DNA of 64,000 nt from Escherichia coli (GTDB taxonomy: Bacteria > Pseudomonadota > Gammaproteobacteria > Enterobacterales > Enterobacteriaceae): NCBI RefSeq assembly GCF_009931435.1, contig NZ_CP043414.1; one strand, written 5' to 3'. How positions within the stretch are numbered: the first letter of the stretch is position 1; each line of letters opens with the position of its first letter. Below are positions 2,926-21,152 of the stretch, in pieces. The position numbers and the translations under genes were made by a program. A model generated the notes under the pieces. It had not been told where the DNA came from and searched no databases. It was given only the letters and a program-made list of their open reading frames with translations.

Positions 2926-3585
2926 ATGACGCAGGATGAATTGAAAAAAGCAGTAGGATGGGCGGCACTTCAGTATGTTCAGCCCGGCACCATTGTTGGT
3001 GTAGGTACAGGTTCCACCGCCGCACACTTTATTGATGCGCTCGGCACGATGAAAGGCCAGATTGAAGGGGCTGTTTCCAGTTCAGATGCTTCCACAGAAA
3101 AACTGAAAAGCCTGGGCATTCACGTTTTTGATCTCAACGAAGTCGACAGCCTTGGCATCTACGTCGACGGTGCAGATGAAATCAACGGCCACATGCAGAT
3201 GATCAAAGGCGGCGGCGCGGCGCTGACCCGTGAAAAAATCATTGCTTCGGTTGCGGAAAAATTTATCTGTATTGCAGACGCTTCTAAGCAGGTTGATATT
3301 CTGGGCAAATTCCCGCTGCCAGTAGAAGTTATCCCGATGGCACGTAGTGCAGTGGCGCGCCAGCTGGTGAAACTGGGCGGTCGTCCGGAATACCGCCAGG
3401 GCGTGGTGACCGATAACGGCAACGTGATCCTCGACGTCCACGGCATGGAAATCCTTGACCCGATAGCGATGGAAAACGCCATAAATGCGATTCCAGGCGT
3501 GGTGACTGTTGGTCTGTTTGCTAACCGTGGCGCGGACGTTGCGCTGATTGGCACACCTGACGGTGTCAAAACCATTGTGAAATGA
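2926..3585 (+). CDS. rpiA: Ribose-5-phosphate isomerase A
   Basis: Track ORF 2890..3585; recognised RpiA begins [19 protein letters not shown] at internal ATG; 219 aa. Confidence 0.93.
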
Positions 3586-3590
3586 TCTGA

Positions 3591-3616
3591 CGGGGGAACC
3601 TCCCCCGTTAAAAAAA
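3591..3616 (+). terminator. Hairpin cgggggaacctcccccg downstream of rpiA (weak, A/T-rich tail)
   Basis: Perfect GC-rich inverted repeat immediately after rpiA stop. Confidence 0.4.
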
Positions 3617-3840
3617 TTCTCTTCATTAAATTTGGTGACATGTGTCACGTTTTTACCTGGCTATTGTCGATTGCTCTAAATAAATCCTCTGAACCAGCAT
3701 ATTCATCCAAGAAATACCTTTGCGTGATATTTCCTCAACATCGCGACGCAAACGTTCATATTGCCGCAATATTATTTTTTGATATGTTGAAAGGCGGATG
3801 CAAATCCGCACACAACATTTCAAAAGACAGGATTGGGTAA

Positions 3841-5073
3841 ATGGCAAAGGTATCGCTGGAGAAAGACAAGATTAAGTTTCTGCTGGTAGAAGGCGTGCAC
3901 CAAAAGGCGCTTGAAAGCCTTCGTGCAGCGGGTTACACCAACATCGAATTTCACAAAGGCGCGCTGGATGATGAACAATTAAAAGAATCCATCCGCGATG
4001 CCCACTTCATCGGCCTGCGATCCCGTACCCATCTGACTGAAGACGTGATCAACGCCGCAGAAAAACTGGTCGCTATTGGCTGTTTCTGTATCGGAACAAA
4101 CCAGGTTGATCTGGATGCAGCTGCAAAACGCGGGATCCCGGTATTTAACGCACCGTTCTCCAATACGCGCTCTGTTGCGGAGTTGGTAATTGGCGAACTT
4201 CTCCTGCTATTGCGCGGCGTACCGGAAGCCAACGCTAAAGCACACCGTGGTGTCTGGAACAAGCTGGCAGCTGGCTCTTTTGAAGCGCGCGGCAAAAAGC
4301 TGGGTATCATCGGCTATGGTCATATTGGTACACAGTTGGGCATTCTGGCTGAATCGCTGGGAATGTATGTTTACTTTTATGATATTGAAAACAAACTACC
4401 GCTGGGCAACGCCACTCAGGTACAGCATCTTTCTGATCTGCTGAATATGAGCGATGTGGTGAGTTTGCATGTGCCAGAGAATCCGTCTACCAAAAATATG
4501 ATGGGCGCGAAAGAGATTTCACTAATGAAGCCCGGCTCGTTGCTGATTAATGCCTCGCGCGGAACGGTGGTGGATATTCCGGCGCTGTGTGACGCGCTGG
4601 CGAGCAAACACCTGGCAGGTGCGGCAATCGATGTCTTCCCGACGGAACCGGCGACCAACAGCGATCCATTTACCTCTCCGCTGTGTGAATTCGACAACGT
4701 CCTTCTGACGCCACATATTGGCGGTTCGACTCAGGAAGCGCAGGAGAATATCGGCCTGGAAGTTGCGGGTAAATTGATCAAGTATTCTGACAATGGCTCA
4801 ACGCTCTCTGCAGTGAACTTCCCGGAAGTCTCGCTGCCACTGCATGGTGGGCGTCGTCTGATGCACATCCACGAAAACCGTCCGGGCGTGCTGACTGCGC
4901 TGAACAAAATCTTTGCCGAGCAGGGCGTTAACATCGCTGCACAGTATCTGCAAACCTCAGCGCAGATGGGTTATGTGGTTATTGATATTGAAGCTGACGA
5001 AGACGTTGCCGAAAAAGCGCTGCAGGCAATGAAAGCTATTCCGGGCACCATTCGCGCCCGTCTGCTGTACTAA
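3841..5073 (+). CDS. serA: D-3-phosphoglycerate dehydrogenase
   Basis: Track ORF 410 aa; recognised SerA sequence (MAKVSLEKDKIKFLLVEGVHQ...) with C-terminal ACT domain. Confidence 0.95.
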   Translation: MAKVSLEKDKIKFLLVEGVHQKALESLRAAGYTNIEFHKGALDDEQLKESIRDAHFIGLRSRTHLTEDVINAAEKLVAIGCFCIGTNQVDLDAAAKRGIPVFNAPFSNTRSVAELVIGELLLLLRGVPEANAKAHRGVWNKLAAGSFEARGKKLGIIGYGHIGTQLGILAESLGMYVYFYDIENKLPLGNATQVQHLSDLLNMSDVVSLHVPENPSTKNMMGAKEISLMKPGSLLINASRGTVVDIPALCDALASKHLAGAAIDVFPTEPATNSDPFTSPLCEFDNVLLTPHIGGSTQEAQENIGLEVAGKLIKYSDNGSTLSAVNFPEVSLPLHGGRRLMHIHENRPGVLTALNKIFAEQGVNIAAQYLQTSAQMGYVVIDIEADEDVAEKALQAMKAIPGTIRARLLY

Positions 5074-11594: not shown

Positions 11595-12689
11595 ATGGCA
11601 CAACAGACTCCTTTGTACGAACAACACACGCTTTGCGGCGCTCGCATGGTGGATTTCCACGGCTGGATGATGCCGCTGCATTACGGTTCGCAAATCGACG
11701 AACATCATGCGGTACGTACCGATGCCGGAATGTTTGATGTGTCACATATGACCATCGTCGATCTTCGCGGCAGTCGCACCCGGGAGTTTCTGCGTTATCT
11801 GCTGGCTAACGATGTGGCGAAGCTCACCAAAAGCGGCAAAGCCCTTTACTCGGGGATGTTGAATGCCTCTGGCGGTGTGATAGATGACCTTATCGTCTAC
11901 TACTTTACTGAAGATTTCTTCCGCCTCGTTGTTAACTCCGCCACCCGCGAAAAAGACCTCTCCTGGATTACCCAACACGCTGAACCTTTCGGCATCGAAA
12001 TTACCGTTCGTGATGACCTCTCCATGATTGCCGTACAAGGGCCGAATGCGCAGGCAAAAGCTGCCACACTGTTTAATGATGCTCAGCGTCAGGCGGTGGA
12101 AGGGATGAAACCCTTCTTTGGCGTGCAGGCGGGCGATCTGTTTATTGCCACCACCGGTTATACCGGTGAAGTGGGCTACGAAATTGCGCTGCCCAATGAA
12201 AAAGCGGCGGATTTCTGGCGTGCGCTGGTGGAAGCGGGCGTTAAGCCCTGCGGTCTGGGCGCTCGTGACACACTGCGTCTGGAAGCGGGTATGAATCTGT
12301 ATAGCCAGGAGATGGACGAAACTATTTCTCCTTTAGCCGCCAACATGGGCTGGACCATCGCCTGGGAACCGACTGATCGTGACTTTATCGGTCGTGAAGC
12401 TCTGGAAGCGCAGCGTGAACATGGCACAGAAAAACTGGTTGGTCTGGTGATGACCGAAAAAGGCGTGCTGCGTAATGAACTGCCGGTACGTTTTACCGAT
12501 GCGCAGGGCAATCAGCATGAAGGCATTATCACCAGCGGTACTTTCTCCCCGACGTTGGGTTACAGCATTGCGCTGGCACGCGTGCCGGAAGGTATTGGCG
12601 AAACGGCGATTGTGCAAATTCGCAACCGTGAAATGCCGGTAAAAGTGACGAAACCTGTTTTTGTGCGTAACGGCAAAGCCGTCGCGTGA
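11595..12689 (+). CDS. gcvT: Glycine cleavage system T protein (aminomethyltransferase)
   Basis: Track ORF 364 aa, recognised GcvT sequence. Confidence 0.95.
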
Positions 12690-12711
12690 TTTACTTTTTG
12701 GAGATTAATTG

Positions 12712-13101
12712 ATGAGCAACGTACCAGCAGAACTGAAATACAGCAAAGAACACGAATGGCTGCGTAAAGAAGCCGACGGCACTTACACTGTTGGCATCAC
12801 TGAGCACGCTCAGGAGCTGTTAGGCGATATGGTGTTTGTTGACCTGCCGGAAGTGGGCGCAACAGTTAGCGCGGGCGATGACTGCGCGGTTGCCGAATCG
12901 GTAAAAGCGGCGTCAGACATTTATGCGCCAGTAAGCGGTGAAATCGTGGCGGTAAACGACGCACTCAGCGATTCCCCGGAACTGGTGAACAGCGAACCGT
13001 ATGCAGGCGGCTGGATCTTTAAAATCAAAGCCAGCGATGAAAGCGAACTGGAATCACTGCTGGATGCGACCGCATACGAAGCATTGTTAGAAGACGAGTA
13101 A
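12712..13101 (+). CDS. gcvH: Glycine cleavage system H protein (lipoyl carrier)
   Basis: Track ORF 12709..13101; recognised start [20 protein letters not shown] at second ATG; 129 aa. Confidence 0.93.
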
Positions 13102-13218: not shown

Positions 13219-16092
13219 ATGACACAGACGTTAAGCCAGCTTGAAAACAGCGGCGCTTTTATTGAACGCCATATCGGACCGGACGCCGCGCAACAGCAAG
13301 AAATGCTGAATGCCGTTGGCGCACAATCGTTAAACGCGCTGACCGGCCAGATTGTGCCGAAAGATATTCAGCTTGCGACCCCGCCGCAGGTTGGCGCACC
13401 GGCGACCGAATACGCCGCGCTGGCGGAACTCAAGGCTATTGCCAGTCGCAATAAACGCTTCACGTCTTACATCGGCATGGGTTACACCGCCGTGCAGTTA
13501 CCGCCGGTTATCCTGCGTAACATGCTGGAAAATCCGGGCTGGTATACCGCGTATACTCCGTATCAACCTGAAGTCTCCCAGGGCCGCCTTGAAGCACTGC
13601 TCAACTTCCAGCAGGTAACGCTGGATTTGACTGGCCTGGATATGGCTTCGGCTTCTCTTCTTGACGAAGCCACCGCTGCCGCCGAAGCAATGGCGATGGC
13701 GAAACGCGTCAGCAAACTGAAAAATGCCAACCGCTTCTTTGTTGCTTCTGACGTGCATCCGCAAACGCTGGATGTGGTACGTACTCGTGCCGAAACCTTT
13801 GGTTTTGAAGTGATTGTCGATGACGCGCAAAAAGTGCTGGATCACCAGGACGTCTTCGGCGTGCTGTTACAGCAGGTCGGCACTACCGGTGAAATTCACG
13901 ACTACACCGCGCTTATCAGCGAACTGAAATCACGCAAAATTGTGGTCAGCGTTGCCGCCGATATTATGGCGCTGGTGCTGTTAACTGCGCCGGGTAAACA
14001 GGGCGCGGATATTGTCTTTGGTTCGGCGCAACGCTTTGGCGTACCGATGGGCTACGGTGGCCCGCACGCGGCATTCTTTGCGGCGAAAGATGAATACAAA
14101 CGCTCAATGCCGGGCCGTATTATTGGTGTATCGAAAGATGCTGCGGGCAATACCGCGCTGCGCATGGCGATGCAGACTCGCGAGCAACATATTCGCCGTG
14201 AGAAAGCGAACTCCAACATTTGTACTTCCCAGGTACTGCTGGCAAACATCGCCAGCCTGTATGCCGTTTATCACGGTCCGGTTGGCCTGAAACGTATCGC
14301 TAACCGCATCCACCGTCTTACTGATATCCTGGCTGCAGGTCTGCAACAAAAAGGTCAGAAGCTGCGCCATGCGCACTATTTCGATACTTTGTGTTTGGAA
14401 GTGGCCGACAAAGCGGGCGTGCTGGCGCGTGCCGAAGCGGCTGAAATCAACCTGCGTAGCGATATTCTGAATGCGGTGGGGATCACCCTTGATGAAACCA
14501 CCACGCGCGAAAACGTGATGCAGCTTTTCAGCGTACTGCTGGGCGATAATCACGGACTGGACATCGACACGCTGGACAAAGACGTGGCTCACGACAGCCG
14601 TTCTATTCAGCCTGCAATGCTGCGCGATGACGAAATGCTCACCCATCCGGTGTTTAATCGCTACCACAGCGAAACCGAAATGATGCGCTATATGCACTCG
14701 CTGGAGCGTAAAGATCTGGCGCTGAATCAGGCGATGATCCCGCTGGGTTCCTGCACCATGAAACTGAACGCCGCCGCCGAGATGATCCCAATCACCTGGC
14801 CGGAATTTGCCGAACTGCACCCGTTCTGCCCGCCGGAACAGGCCGAAGGTTATCAGCAGATGATCGCGCAACTGGCTGACTGGCTGGTGAAACTGACCGG
14901 TTACGACGCCGTCTGTATGCAGCCGAACTCTGGCGCTCAGGGCGAATACGCGGGGCTGCTGGCGATTCGTCATTATCATGAAAGCCGCAACGAAGGACAT
15001 CGCGATATCTGCCTGATCCCGGCTTCTGCGCATGGCACTAACCCGGCTTCCGCGCATATGGCAGGAATGCAGGTGGTGGTTGTGGCGTGTGATAAAAACG
15101 GCAACATCGATCTGACTGACCTGCGCGCGAAAGCGGAGCAGGCGGGCGATAATCTCTCCTGCATTATGGTGACCTATCCTTCCACCCACGGCGTGTACGA
15201 AGAAACGATCCGTGAAGTGTGTGAAATCGTGCATCAGTTCGGCGGTCAGGTTTACCTTGATGGCGCGAACATGAACGCCCAGGTTGGCATCACTTCGCCG
15301 GGCTTTATTGGCGCGGACGTTTCGCACCTTAACCTGCATAAAACTTTCTGCATTCCGCACGGCGGTGGTGGTCCGGGTATGGGACCGATCGGCGTGAAAG
15401 CGCATTTGGCACCGTTTGTTCCGGGTCATAGCGTGGTGCAAATCGAAGGCATGTTAACCCGTCAGGGCGCGGTTTCTGCGGCACCGTTCGGTAGCGCTTC
15501 TATTCTGCCAATTAGCTGGATGTACATCCGCATGATGGGCGCAGAAGGGCTGAAAAAAGCAAGCCAGGTGGCAATCCTCAACGCCAACTATATTGCCAGC
15601 CGCCTGCAGGATGCCTTCCCGGTGCTGTATACCGGTCGCGATGGTCGCGTGGCGCACGAATGTATTCTCGATATTCGCCCGTTGAAAGAAGAAACCGGCA
15701 TCAGCGAGCTGGATATTGCCAAGCGTCTGATCGACTATGGTTTCCACGCGCCGACCATGTCGTTCCCGGTGGCGGGGACGCTGATGGTAGAACCGACTGA
15801 ATCTGAAAGCAAAGTGGAACTGGATCGCTTTATCGACGCGATGCTGGCTATCCGCGCAGAAATTGACCAGGTGAAAGCCGGTGTCTGGCCGCTGGAAGAT
15901 AACCCGCTGGTGAATGCTCCGCACATTCAGAGCGAACTGGTCGCCGAGTGGGCGCATCCGTACAGCCGTGAAGTTGCAGTATTCCCGGCAGGCGTGGCAG
16001 ATAAATACTGGCCGACAGTGAAACGTCTGGATGATGTTTACGGGGACCGTAACCTGTTCTGCTCCTGCGTACCGATTAGCGAATACCAGTAA
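13219..16092 (+). CDS. gcvP: Glycine dehydrogenase (decarboxylating), glycine cleavage P protein
   Basis: Track ORF 957 aa, recognised GcvP sequence, PLP-dependent. Confidence 0.95.
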
Positions 16093-16140
16093 TTTACTGA
16101 TTCGACTATCTTCTAAAGGCGCTTCGGCGCCTTTGACACT

Positions 16141-16286
16141 GATGTCAAACTCAACATTGCCTGATGCACCTCGTTTATCAGGCCTACATAGTCTGTGCAA
16201 TGTATTGAATTTGCACGATCTTGTAGGCTGGATAAGGCGTTCACGCCGCATCCGGCATAATAAAAGCACTTTGTCATCAATAATTT
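16141..16286. repeat. REP/BIME element cluster between gcvP and ygfF
   Basis: Contains gcctgatgcacctcgtttatcaggcctaca and tgtaggctggataaggcgttcacgccgcatccggca, typical REP palindromes. Confidence 0.8.
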
Positions 16287-16287
16287 G

Positions 16288-16315
16288 AAAGGCGCTTCGG
16301 CGCCTTTATTTTTTT
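16288..16315 (+). terminator. Rho-independent terminator (second copy of duplicated hairpin aaaggcgcttcggcgccttt + T-tract)
   Basis: Perfect 8-bp stem with 4-nt loop followed by ATTTTTTT. Confidence 0.7.
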
Positions 16316-16325
16316 AGGAAAACAA

Positions 16326-17069
16326 ATGACTATAGCACTTGTGACCGGTGGCAGTCGCGGCATCGGGCGGGCAACTGCATTACTGTTGGCGCAAGAAGGG
16401 TATACGGTGGCGGTTAATTATCAGCAAAACCTCCACGCGGCGCAGGAAGTGGTGAAGTTAATCACGCAAGCCGGTGGCAAGGCATTCGTGCTTCAGGCGG
16501 ATATCAGCGACGAAAATCAGGTCATCGCAATGTTTACAGCAATCGATCAGCACGATGAACCGCTAGCCGCGCTGGTCAATAACGCCGGGATCTTGTTTAC
16601 CCAGTGCACCGTAGAAAACCTTACCGCAGAGCGAATCAACCGGGTACTTTCCACCAATGTGACGGGATATTTTCTCTGCTGCCGCGAGGCGGTAAAGCGC
16701 ATGGCGCTTAAGAACGGCGGTAATGGCGGTGCTATCGTCAATGTCTCGTCAGTGGCTTCACGGCTGGGATCGCCGGGAGAATACGTTGACTATGCGGCAT
16801 CGAAAGGGGCGATTGATACGTTAACCACAGGGCTGTCACTGGAAGTCGCCGCGCAGGGGATCCGCGTTAACGGCGTGCGGCCAGGGTTTATTTATACCGA
16901 AATGCACGCCAGCGGTGGCGAACCTGGACGCGTTGATCGCGTTAAGTCGAACATCCCCATGCAGCGTGGCGGACAGGCGGAAGAGGTCGCGCAGGCCATC
17001 GTCTGGCTGTTAAGTGATAAAGCCTCTTATGTCACGGGAAGTTTTATCGATTTGGCGGGTGGAAAATAA
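16326..17069 (+). CDS. ygfF: Short-chain dehydrogenase/reductase family oxidoreductase
   Basis: Track ORF 247 aa; SDR Rossmann motif TGGSRGIG and YxxxK catalytic motif. Confidence 0.9.
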   Translation: MTIALVTGGSRGIGRATALLLAQEGYTVAVNYQQNLHAAQEVVKLITQAGGKAFVLQADISDENQVIAMFTAIDQHDEPLAALVNNAGILFTQCTVENLTAERINRVLSTNVTGYFLCCREAVKRMALKNGGNGGAIVNVSSVASRLGSPGEYVDYAASKGAIDTLTTGLSLEVAAQGIRVNGVRPGFIYTEMHASGGEPGRVDRVKSNIPMQRGGQAEEVAQAIVWLLSDKASYVTGSFIDLAGGK

Positions 17070-17125: not shown

Positions 17126-18586
<1,461 letters not shown>

Positions 18587-19075: not shown

Positions 19076-19738
<663 letters not shown>

Positions 19739-19744
19739 TGGGTG

Positions 19745-19910
19745 TGCCTTTGTAGGCCTGATAAGACGCGTCAGCGTCGCATCAGGCATCGGATCGCAAC
19801 TGCCGGATGCGGCGTGAACGCCTTATCCGGCCTACGGGCCGCGTCCTTGGTGTGATAAAGGCACCAAATCCCAGGCATGATAAGACGCGTCAGCGTCGCA
19901 TCAGGCAATA
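19745..19910. repeat. REP/BIME cluster (three REP palindromes) between yqfA and ygfZ
   Basis: Repeated gcctgataagacgcgtcagcgtcgcatcaggc and gccggatgcggcgtgaacgccttatccggcctac units. Confidence 0.85.
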
Positions 19911-19932: not shown

Positions 19933-20913
19933 TTACTCTTCGAGCGAATACGGCAGCGGCTCGATATGCAATGTATTCGCATCGTCACGTACGCGGAAGA
20001 TGCTGTCCGGTTCCATATCGTTATTCATGACGACCTGTACCACGACCTGACCATCTTCCAGTTTTACCGCAGCCAGCACCGTACCGGTACGACGCCAGTT
20101 CTCGCCCATTTTCAGCTCTAAATCTTCACCCGCTTCCGGCAGTCGGCTGGCGCTACCTGCCAGCAGCCAGAGGGCACGTTTGTTGGCACCGCGGAATTTA
20201 GCTCGTGCCACCATCTCTTGTCCGGTATAACAGCCTTTTTTAAAGCTGATGCCGCCCAGCGCCTGGAGGTTGGTCGCCTGTGGGATAAACTGCCCGCTGT
20301 TGGCGGCATCAATCACCGGAAAACCCGCTTCAATGTTTAATGCCAGCCACTGTTGGCTATTGTTCAGTTCTGCTTCACCGCGCAGTTTATCGGTCAGCGT
20401 ATTGGCGGTAGCTTCATCGGTTACGATCAGGAAACGTTCTGCTGGGTGTTCAAACCATAGCAGGGTAGTCGCACCTTCTCTGATAACCTGCTTTTCCTTC
20501 GAAGGTAATTCACTAAAGAGGTTAGCCAGCGCAGCGCGTGCCTGAAAACCGGCAACACCAAGCAGCACACGTTCATCGTCTGGCGCGATGGTCACTTTAG
20601 AGAACACCGCATATTTTTTCAGTTCAGTCAGTTGTGACTCGCGCACGCTGCGCCGTTCAATCCACGCAAAGCCATCGCCGTCGCGGAACAGACGTAAATT
20701 GCTCCACATTTTGCCTTTGGCGTCGCAATGGGCGGCGAGCAGGTGCTGATCTTCTGTCATCTGGCTGACATCTGCTGTCACCTGACCCTGCATATATTTT
20801 TCGCTGTCCGCGCCAGTAATGGTGGCAAGCGCCCAGTCATCAAGCGTCATCAGCGTCAGCGGTAAACGGGCAGAAGCCGTAGGCTGACGGGGAGGAAAAG
20901 GTGTAAAAGCCAT
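19933..20913 (-). CDS. ygfZ: tRNA-modifying / Fe-S cluster-associated folate-binding protein YgfZ
   Basis: Track ORF 19933..20979; recognised YgfZ begins [30 protein letters not shown] at internal Met (326 aa). Confidence 0.88.
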
Positions 20914-21152
20914 AATGGAGTCCTGTTTTACAAACGGCGTATTTATGACTAATGGTAAAAGAGCTATGAGGCAATGCAAGTGCTTTCACTACGCGATCTG
21001 TGCCTTCTGATATGCTTTGCGAGGCGACTACCAAAAAAATGAAGCCCTTGAAATATTGTGGGTTAATTTCGCGATCGCGATTGTGTTTACTGATATTCCC
21101 GCAAAAGAAGTCGAAAAACACGTTACAATAGCCTGGTACTGGATTTTCGTGA

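Follow-up and report, generated by a model that had tools for sequence, protein, structure and literature searches.

The spacer between gcvP and ygfF in the Escherichia coli sequence analyzed here (hereinafter the window, the whole stretch of 64,000 nucleotides) carries a repetitive element between two identical copies of a hairpin. Comparison of this region with related alleles shows the insertion of a sharply bounded element together with the direct duplication of one whole palindromic hairpin. The best explanation, in which we have considerable confidence even with the enzyme-made symmetric cuts included, is that the ancestral terminator hairpin of gcvP was duplicated by the insertion of a BIME-1. 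The signature of this insertion consists of three parts, namely sharp inverted ends, a duplication that amounts to one dyad-centred terminator palindrome, and matching empty sites, and it gives a concrete, testable model in which the predicted targets are terminator cruciforms.

The exact 20-mer AAAGGCGCTTCGGCGCCTTT is present in two copies in the same orientation, at 16115-16134 (copy 1) and 16288-16307 (copy 2) of the plus strand, with 153 bp between them; there is no third site in the 64,000-nt window even when three mismatches are tolerated, and two or more matches were found in none of 100 dinucleotide-preserving shuffles. Because the loops have the same orientation, the duplication is direct and not inverted. 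In the predicted fold of either copy, a UUCG loop closes a stem of 8-9 bp (-13 to -14 kcal/mol). A T-run (A followed by T7, 16308-16315, plus strand), located 10 nt upstream of the ygfF start codon (16326), follows copy 2 only and completes what is, according to a terminator scan, the sole terminator-like site on the plus strand of the region; with its 8-bp stem, five G-C pairs and A plus T7, copy 2 alone has the makeup of a putative intrinsic terminator. Copy 1 has just three T before GACAC and is not called by the scan. The two copies are the left and right copies of the duplicated target: copy 1 retains the ancestral upstream context ..CTATCTTCT, identical to that of an empty site in another E. 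coli strain (2020CK-00188, see below), and copy 2 retains the ancestral downstream context, which is identical to that of the same empty site and homologous to the corresponding sequences of Klebsiella and Metakosakonia.

The gene order, taken from the list of open reading frames, is gcvT (11595-12689), gcvH (12709-13101), gcvP (13219-16092; glycine dehydrogenase, the last gene of gcvTHP, so annotated in matching E. coli records) and ygfF (16326-17069; an SDR oxidoreductase), all on the plus strand, followed by bglA (17126-18583) on the minus strand. A spacing of 22 nt separates the 3' end of gcvP from hairpin copy 1.

The 153 bp at 16135-16287 is, judging by its sequence organization, a complete BIME-1, also denoted RIB (reiterative ihf BIME) or RIP (repetitive IHF-binding palindromic element), that consists of a Y unit, an L motif with an IHF-like site and a Z1 unit, framed by the imperfect inverted ends GACACTGATGTCAAA...TTTGTCATCAATAATTTG. 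The left end GACACTGATGTCAAACTCAACATT (16135-16158, plus strand; family consensus GAGACTGATGACAAACG) is an imperfect inverted repeat of the right end ..GCACTTTGTCATCAATAATTTG (16258-16287, plus strand; family consensus CTTTGTCAGCAATCTG), and the consensus ends, GAGACTGATGACAAA and, in reverse complement, CAGATTGCTGACAAA, match at approximately 12 of 15 positions by eye. Between the ends lie the Y-type palindromic unit, or REP, GCCTGATGCACCTCGTTTATCAGGCCTACA (16159-16188, plus strand), which is part of the pattern that retrieved BIME-1 elsewhere; the L linker (16189-16221); and, in inverted orientation, the Z1-type REP TGTAGGCTGGATAAGGCGTTCACGCCGCATCCGGCA (16222-16257, plus strand), which corresponds to inverted repeat I2 and to a partial naRNA4 match. 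The linker contains a putative IHF-binding site, ATTCAATACATTG (16198-16210, minus strand), with one mismatch to WATCAANNNNTTR; one-mismatch matches to this motif are common in the window (67 found vs 54 expected). The whole element is predicted to fold end to end with its termini paired (-52.7 kcal/mol, z = -6.2). Two Rfam matches, to ES036/CssrF (16180-16222, minus strand; 38.4 bits vs the gathering score of 37.6) and to naRNA4 (16226-16267, plus strand; partial and under the gathering score), mark REP/BIME sequence here rather than a separate sRNA gene.

BIME-1 (RIB/RIP) elements have been described as single-copy units of about 140-150 bp that combine a Y REP, a long L linker with an IHF-type site and a Z1 REP and are located at the 3' ends of transcription units (PMC3333891); their presence/absence polymorphism among isolates is attributed to Bachellier 1997 in the citing paper (PMC1187871). 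The window element is an ordinary member of this group and in itself does not differ from it: a single unit (16159-16257) combines one Y and one inverted Z1 REP with a long L linker, the core pattern TTATCAGGCCTACA-N41-GGATAAGGCG is common to it and to the copies in other genomes, and it is located at the 3' end of a transcription unit, 22 nt past gcvP, where it is present in some E. coli and absent from others. No further BIME-1 copy was found in the window. A REP cluster at 19745-19910, between the open reading frames 19079-19738 (plus strand) and 19933-20979 (minus strand), comprises three or four BIME-2 or atypical units, without BIME-1 end motifs or flanking hairpin repeats.

A survey of the gcvP-ygfF spacer in 5,426 complete E. 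coli genomes revealed four allelic states: the BIME-1-occupied allele of the window (approximately 9 genomes), an empty site (3 genomes), a K-12-type allele (3,026 genomes; see below) and an allele that lacks ygfF (approximately 2,400 genomes, a rough estimate from the spread of hit types). The empty sites have a single hairpin and 100% identity over 200 bp: the window sequence is there except for precisely one 173-bp unit, composed of the element and a hairpin; in E. coli 2020CK-00188, the site reads ..CTATCTTCT AAAGGCGCTTCGGCGCCTTT ATTTTTTTAGGAAAACAAATGACT. Beyond E. coli, the gcvP-hairpin-ygfF synteny is kept in Klebsiella, Metakosakonia and Pseudescherichia. Klebsiella variicola has one AAAGGCGCTGCGGCGCCTTT followed by ATTTTTT, directly before the ygfF ribosome-binding site, and Metakosakonia massiliensis has one hairpin, the identical AAAGGCGCTTCGGCGCCTTT, followed by ATTTTT; the single hairpin in these two genera implies that one hairpin is the ancestral state. 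Precise deletion between the repeats, and not a lack of prior occupancy, may account for the three empty E. coli alleles; the outgroups argue independently for one ancestral hairpin, whatever the origin of these alleles. In Escherichia sp. E1V33, the orthologous locus (93-96% identical) contains the same element variant twice and three hairpins, two of which are slightly mutated, and accordingly the insertion is old and the unit can amplify in tandem. The earlier note, which had reported an exact 20-bp direct hairpin duplication around REP sequence, with a T-tract at the second copy only, is accurate in its coordinates, the spacer being 153 bp, and its proposal that the hairpin pair is a target-site duplication left by the insertion of a REP element into the gcvP terminator is strongly supported, among other things by the filled and empty sites; the single hairpin that it proposed looking for in relatives without the REP is found in the three E. 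coli empty sites, Klebsiella and Metakosakonia. The possibility that the hairpin itself belongs to a repeat family was considered and rejected: it has only two copies in the window, each of the other loci has a hairpin of its own, and the outgroups have just one copy.

Two variants of this locus carry rearrangements of their own. Strain 2017-02-2CC (NZ_AP027764.1), one of the approximately nine genomes with the window allele and the genome most similar to the window (99.9% identity over 3.7 kb), has IS621, of the IS110 family, inside the Y unit of the same BIME-1 (3480-4780 of the retrieved locus, corresponding to window position 16183/16184), with ..TTATCAGGCCT before and ACATAGTC.. after the insertion sequence; IS621 is absent from the window. 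In ETEC1701 (893-1057 of the retrieved locus), gcvP is followed by the hairpin, TTTTTAG, approximately 120 bp of unrelated sequence and bglA, and ygfF is absent. Since TTTTTAG is shared with the K-12-type allele, the sequence suggests that ygfF was lost through a deletion that began inside a K-12-type element.

The first hint that hairpin duplication is general came from the prohibitin-tkt and yddM-fdnI spacers of E. coli, where homologous elements of 151-152 bp each lie between two copies of another hairpin. A scan of species-representative genomes with one exact-match pattern for the BIME-1 core retrieved at least 120 stretches from E. albertii, E. coli, Escherichia sp. E1V33, E. whittamii, Pseudocitrobacter, Kosakonia and Citrobacter; as it covers the matches listed for a single exact-match pattern, this is a sample and not a genome census. 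Among the matches listed, both end motifs are present in 49 copies, with lengths of 146-153 bp (mode 152). The copies of Pseudocitrobacter faecalis DSM 27453 look, by eye, nearly alike, a sign of possible recent activity. A flanking direct repeat with a score of at least 10 was detected for 30 of these 49 listed copies, compared with 1% of swapped-flank controls, and an end-anchored repeat with a score of at least 8 for 28 of the 49, compared with 0.9% of 1,923 such controls. Among the matches listed, the 28 anchored repeats are 18-30 bp long, represent approximately 22 distinct loci and are on average 91% identical within a pair, with 5 of the 28 pairs identical; the repeats abut the element ends with an offset of 0 in 20-23 of 30 cases, and the repeated sequence is a different hairpin at each locus. 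On this evidence, most of the intact BIME-1 copies (28 of the 49 listed), in different species and at different loci, appear to be flanked by a whole-hairpin duplication.

The boundaries of the element are sharp in the 49 listed copies, with the information content rising from 0.20 to 1.40 bits exactly at the left edge and falling from 1.37 to 0.21 bits at the right edge. The 32 nt next to the element in the listed copies have a median folding energy of approximately -12.5 kcal/mol, compared with -4 to -5 kcal/mol at 64-96 nt away. Among the matches listed, the midpoint of the repeat coincides with the hairpin dyad in 18 of 28 cases; in the reconstructed empty sites, the palindrome usually runs symmetrically 1-5 bp (A/T pairs) past the repeat, and in the listed sequences the repeats, by eye, typically begin with AA(A) and finish with TT(T). 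As we read the A/T counts of the flanks, bidirectional terminators are frequent among the targets, and the element occurs in both orientations relative to the T-tract, with no evident bias. Filled and empty sites are found at other loci as well: at yddM-fdnI, EC11 has a single hairpin, strain 277 has one element, and strain 3A has two elements and three hairpins, and the reconstructed empty site matches an O157:H7 genome at 193 of 193 positions; at uvrB-yvcK, the site is empty in Ecol_276, with one hairpin, and filled in E69.

Approximately 40% of the intact listed copies have no clear duplication (one locus, L054, has none at all). These copies may be old ones that have decayed, or they may reflect looser target choice, with occasional non-hairpin targets and a short default stagger. 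Two Pseudocitrobacter loci (L032 and L076) have short, exact, abutting repeats that are not hairpins, ATAGCAT (7 bp) and, beside a hairpin, GGCTTT (6 bp), respectively; repeats of 6-7 bp may be the default stagger of the enzyme on non-extruded DNA. Tandem arrays of the form hairpin-element-hairpin-element-hairpin are present in the retrieved stretches L100 (1700-2100), L134 (110-500), L016 and L027. Within an array, the element copies are, by eye, nearly identical, a similarity that favors unequal exchange at the duplicated hairpins or elements over repeated insertion.

The model that we favor starts from one hairpin, AAAGGCGC-TTCG-GCGCCTTT, with its T-tract, that stood downstream of the gcvP stop codon, before the ygfF ribosome-binding site, and served as the intrinsic terminator of gcvTHP. 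A non-autonomous BIME-1 of 153 bp integrated at this palindrome and all 20 bp of it were duplicated (X-H-Y to X-H-E-H-Y, where H is the hairpin and E the element), as the comparison of filled and empty sites shows. The integrating enzyme would recognize the conserved element ends and attach each of them to one strand of the target, at points that lie 2-3 bp beyond the G+C stem and mirror each other across the dyad. In B-form DNA these points would be 18-30 bp apart, whereas extrusion of a cruciform, or of hairpins from the two strands, would bring them together at the base, and repair synthesis across the gap would leave the whole palindrome on both sides. An enzyme that acts as a dimer on a four-way junction and binds the conserved termini would fit this geometry. 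We infer the cruciform and the staggered cut from geometry; the polarity of the cut is invisible in sequence. The resulting 20-bp direct repeats could then support precise loss, as perhaps in the empty alleles, or tandem gain, as in E1V33 and in strain 3A at yddM-fdnI. The model accounts for the location of BIME-1 at the 3' ends of transcription units, for its precise gain and loss and for the short tandem arrays. A search for end-motif pairs 0.4-4 kb apart in 1.1 Mb of loci yielded no transposase or autonomous partner; the end-motif pairs in these loci flank only elements of approximately 150 bp.

The earlier note had suggested mediation by RAYT (TnpA_REP, a Y1 HUH transposase); on this reading, the REP doublet would have been cut out as single-stranded DNA and placed at the terminator by this enzyme. 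No other enzyme has so far been linked to the spread of REPs and BIMEs, RAYT binds and cleaves BIMEs in vitro (PMC3333891), and the element, with its two inverted REPs (Y and Z1), is REPIN-like. However, transposition of the IS200/IS605 type involves neither target duplication nor terminal inverted repeats (PMC2817692, PMC3333891), and insertion into one strand cannot place a 20-bp copy of the target on both sides. Furthermore, TnpA_REP cuts between C and T next to or within REPs (PMC3333891), whereas the boundaries of the element are 24-31 nt outside the REPs, and the rayT gene of K-12 is flanked by BIME-2-type REPs without BIME-1 end motifs. The properties of Y1 enzymes, the position of the cut and the BIME-2-type flanks of rayT make this route improbable, so this part of the earlier reading is not upheld; the integrating enzyme is probably not RAYT. 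The duplication suggests that one class of BIME moves otherwise than by the RAYT single-strand route and gives an indication of how the abundant BIME-1 repeats spread.

A second alternative invokes no dedicated transposase: a host junction or hairpin nuclease would cut the cruciform, or replication would switch templates at the hairpin, after which the 5' overhangs would be filled in and a free BIME-1 captured. A symmetric, dyad-centred duplication whose length tracks that of the hairpin is what cruciform resolution followed by fill-in is expected to produce, and BIME-1 itself is a long palindrome. Capture of random fragments is nevertheless at odds with element boundaries that are identical to the base across genera; such base-exact boundaries argue for sequence-specific recognition of the ends. 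Likewise, the same termini recur in a related family whose core differs (see below), as expected if a protein reads the ends, and E. coli has, to our knowledge, no efficient end-joining pathway. We therefore consider this explanation unlikely and retain integration by an enzyme that recognizes the ends of BIME-1. It is highly unlikely that the second hairpin was kept for use, copy 1 being an element of stability or processing of the gcvP mRNA, as the earlier note had also entertained: the hairpin of copy 1, with its UUCG loop, is still perfect (predicted -14 kcal/mol), the two copies can pair in RNA into one predicted 228-nt stem that encloses BIME-1, and in K-12-type alleles copy 1 is intact and copy 2 decayed, but the exact 20/20 copy, loop included, abuts the element ends, as do unrelated hairpins at approximately 22 loci among the matches listed, the hairpin copies of E1V33 have begun to diverge, and just 5 of the 28 listed repeat pairs across all loci are identical. 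Function cannot explain an origin that recurs with unrelated hairpins at so many loci; an RNA role is not needed for the origin of copy 1, and a secondary role is possible.

Duplication of the terminator hairpin around BIME-1, as well as the reading of the element flanks as inverted termini, is absent from the literature searched, which covers work other than the primary papers of the 1990s (Boccard & Prentki, Oppenheim, Bachellier); both are apparently new, and an earlier description in the 1990s is possible. According to a 2011 review, REPs ‘do not display MITE signatures’ (PMC3184786), and the mechanism of insertion is described as unresolved in a 2026 preprint. The element described here has terminal inverted repeats, sharp and conserved boundaries and a flanking target-site duplication that is single at the empty site, all features of MITEs; the duplication is atypical in being 18-30 bp long and comprising a whole palindrome. 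It resembles the Correia/NEMIS and ERIC/IRU MITEs in its size range (approximately 100-170 bp in those families), terminal inverted repeats, lack of an open reading frame, high copy number, intergenic location, folding into long hairpins and the coexistence of filled and empty sites. The duplications of Correia elements (TA) and of ERIC are short and of fixed length, whereas those of BIME-1 vary between 18 and 30 bp and correspond to a palindrome centred on its dyad. By this analogy, BIME-1 appears to act like a MITE such as Correia, but with a target duplication defined by structure and not by a fixed length. Correia elements also have a central IHF site (PMC3184786).

REPINs and their RAYTs share with the element an inverted REP doublet as the mobile unit, long-term vertical persistence and very slow duplication. 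The definition of a REPIN, however, rests on the REP doublet alone, and the proposed route of REPIN movement is a single-strand one through Y1 enzymes, without target duplication, whereas the boundaries of BIME-1 are outside the REPs and duplications are present. The insertions of IS621/IS110-family elements and IS1397 into REPs show that REP/BIME loci are hot spots of recombination, and in strain 2017-02-2CC IS621 lies in the Y unit of the element described here. In those cases the REP is the target, whereas here the REP-bearing element is the insert and a terminator hairpin its target. Class C group II introns and IS30 hot spots show a preference for terminator stem-loops or palindromic targets, and the IS1634 group has unusually long, variable direct repeats; we know of none among these that duplicates exactly one palindrome. 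Kinship of the BIME-1 left end with IS30 was considered, given the 9-mer AACGCAACA in common with the IS30 inverted repeats, and was rejected as too weak (shuffle p ~0.04). IS30A of K-12 (L140, 1042-1086) also has, by eye, an AGAyT motif in common with the consensus left end of BIME-1.

In the K-12-type allele, the same hairpin is followed by T5 and then by a different palindromic repeat of approximately 185 bp with a boxC-like, G-rich core (CCCTCGCCCCTTTGGGGAGAGGGTTAGGGTGAGGGG). The termini of this repeat, TAGTCAGATGACAAAG ... GTTTGTTAGCAATCTC, resemble those of BIME-1, and a degenerate second hairpin, AAAGATACGTCAACGAATTA, with approximately 11-12 of 20 positions matching by eye, occupies the ancestral position before ygfF. 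The boxC-like family was examined at three loci: the K-12-type spacer (L003, 433-637), L141 (120-345) and L074 (150-345). At yijF-gldA, the left hairpin of the boxC-like copy is degenerate (approximately 17 of 25 positions matching by eye), and the Pseudocitrobacter copy has a hairpin at one side only. These sequences suggest that the boxC-like repeats are a sister family that uses the same integration machinery and that the K-12-type allele arose by a second, independent insertion at the gcvP terminator; with the duplicated hairpins degenerate or one-sided, the evidence on this family is only suggestive. A broader proposition, which we put forward tentatively and which stands somewhat below even chances, is that BIME-1 and the boxC-like sister family are MITE-like elements that are integrated by an enzyme at extruded terminator palindromes, through symmetric cuts at the hairpin base that duplicate the terminator. 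If true, this would be a structure-directed mode of integration so far undescribed for bacterial transposons, and it would account for the presence of these repeats at the 3' ends of operons and for their precise coming and going.

At the gcvP-ygfF locus, the insertion would have made BIME-1 part of the gcvP 3' UTR and shifted termination to copy 2. Because copy 1 lacks a U-tract, the gcvTHP transcripts are predicted to read through copy 1 and BIME-1 and to end at copy 2. For annotation, paired identical terminators around a REP doublet would thus represent one ancestral terminator, with only the downstream copy predicted to be functional. Given that the duplicated target is palindromic, pairing between copy 1 and copy 2 is possible in RNA; in the predicted RNA of 16093-16320, a long stem around BIME-1 (-83.8 kcal/mol, z = -6.8) competes with the local hairpins. 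A predicted sigma-70-like site, TTGAAA-16 nt-TATTTT (16285-16312), is located 14 nt upstream of the ygfF start codon; it arises at the junction of the right end of the element (..TTTG) with copy 2 and the T-tract. The empty site has TCTAAA in place of TTGAAA at the -35 position.
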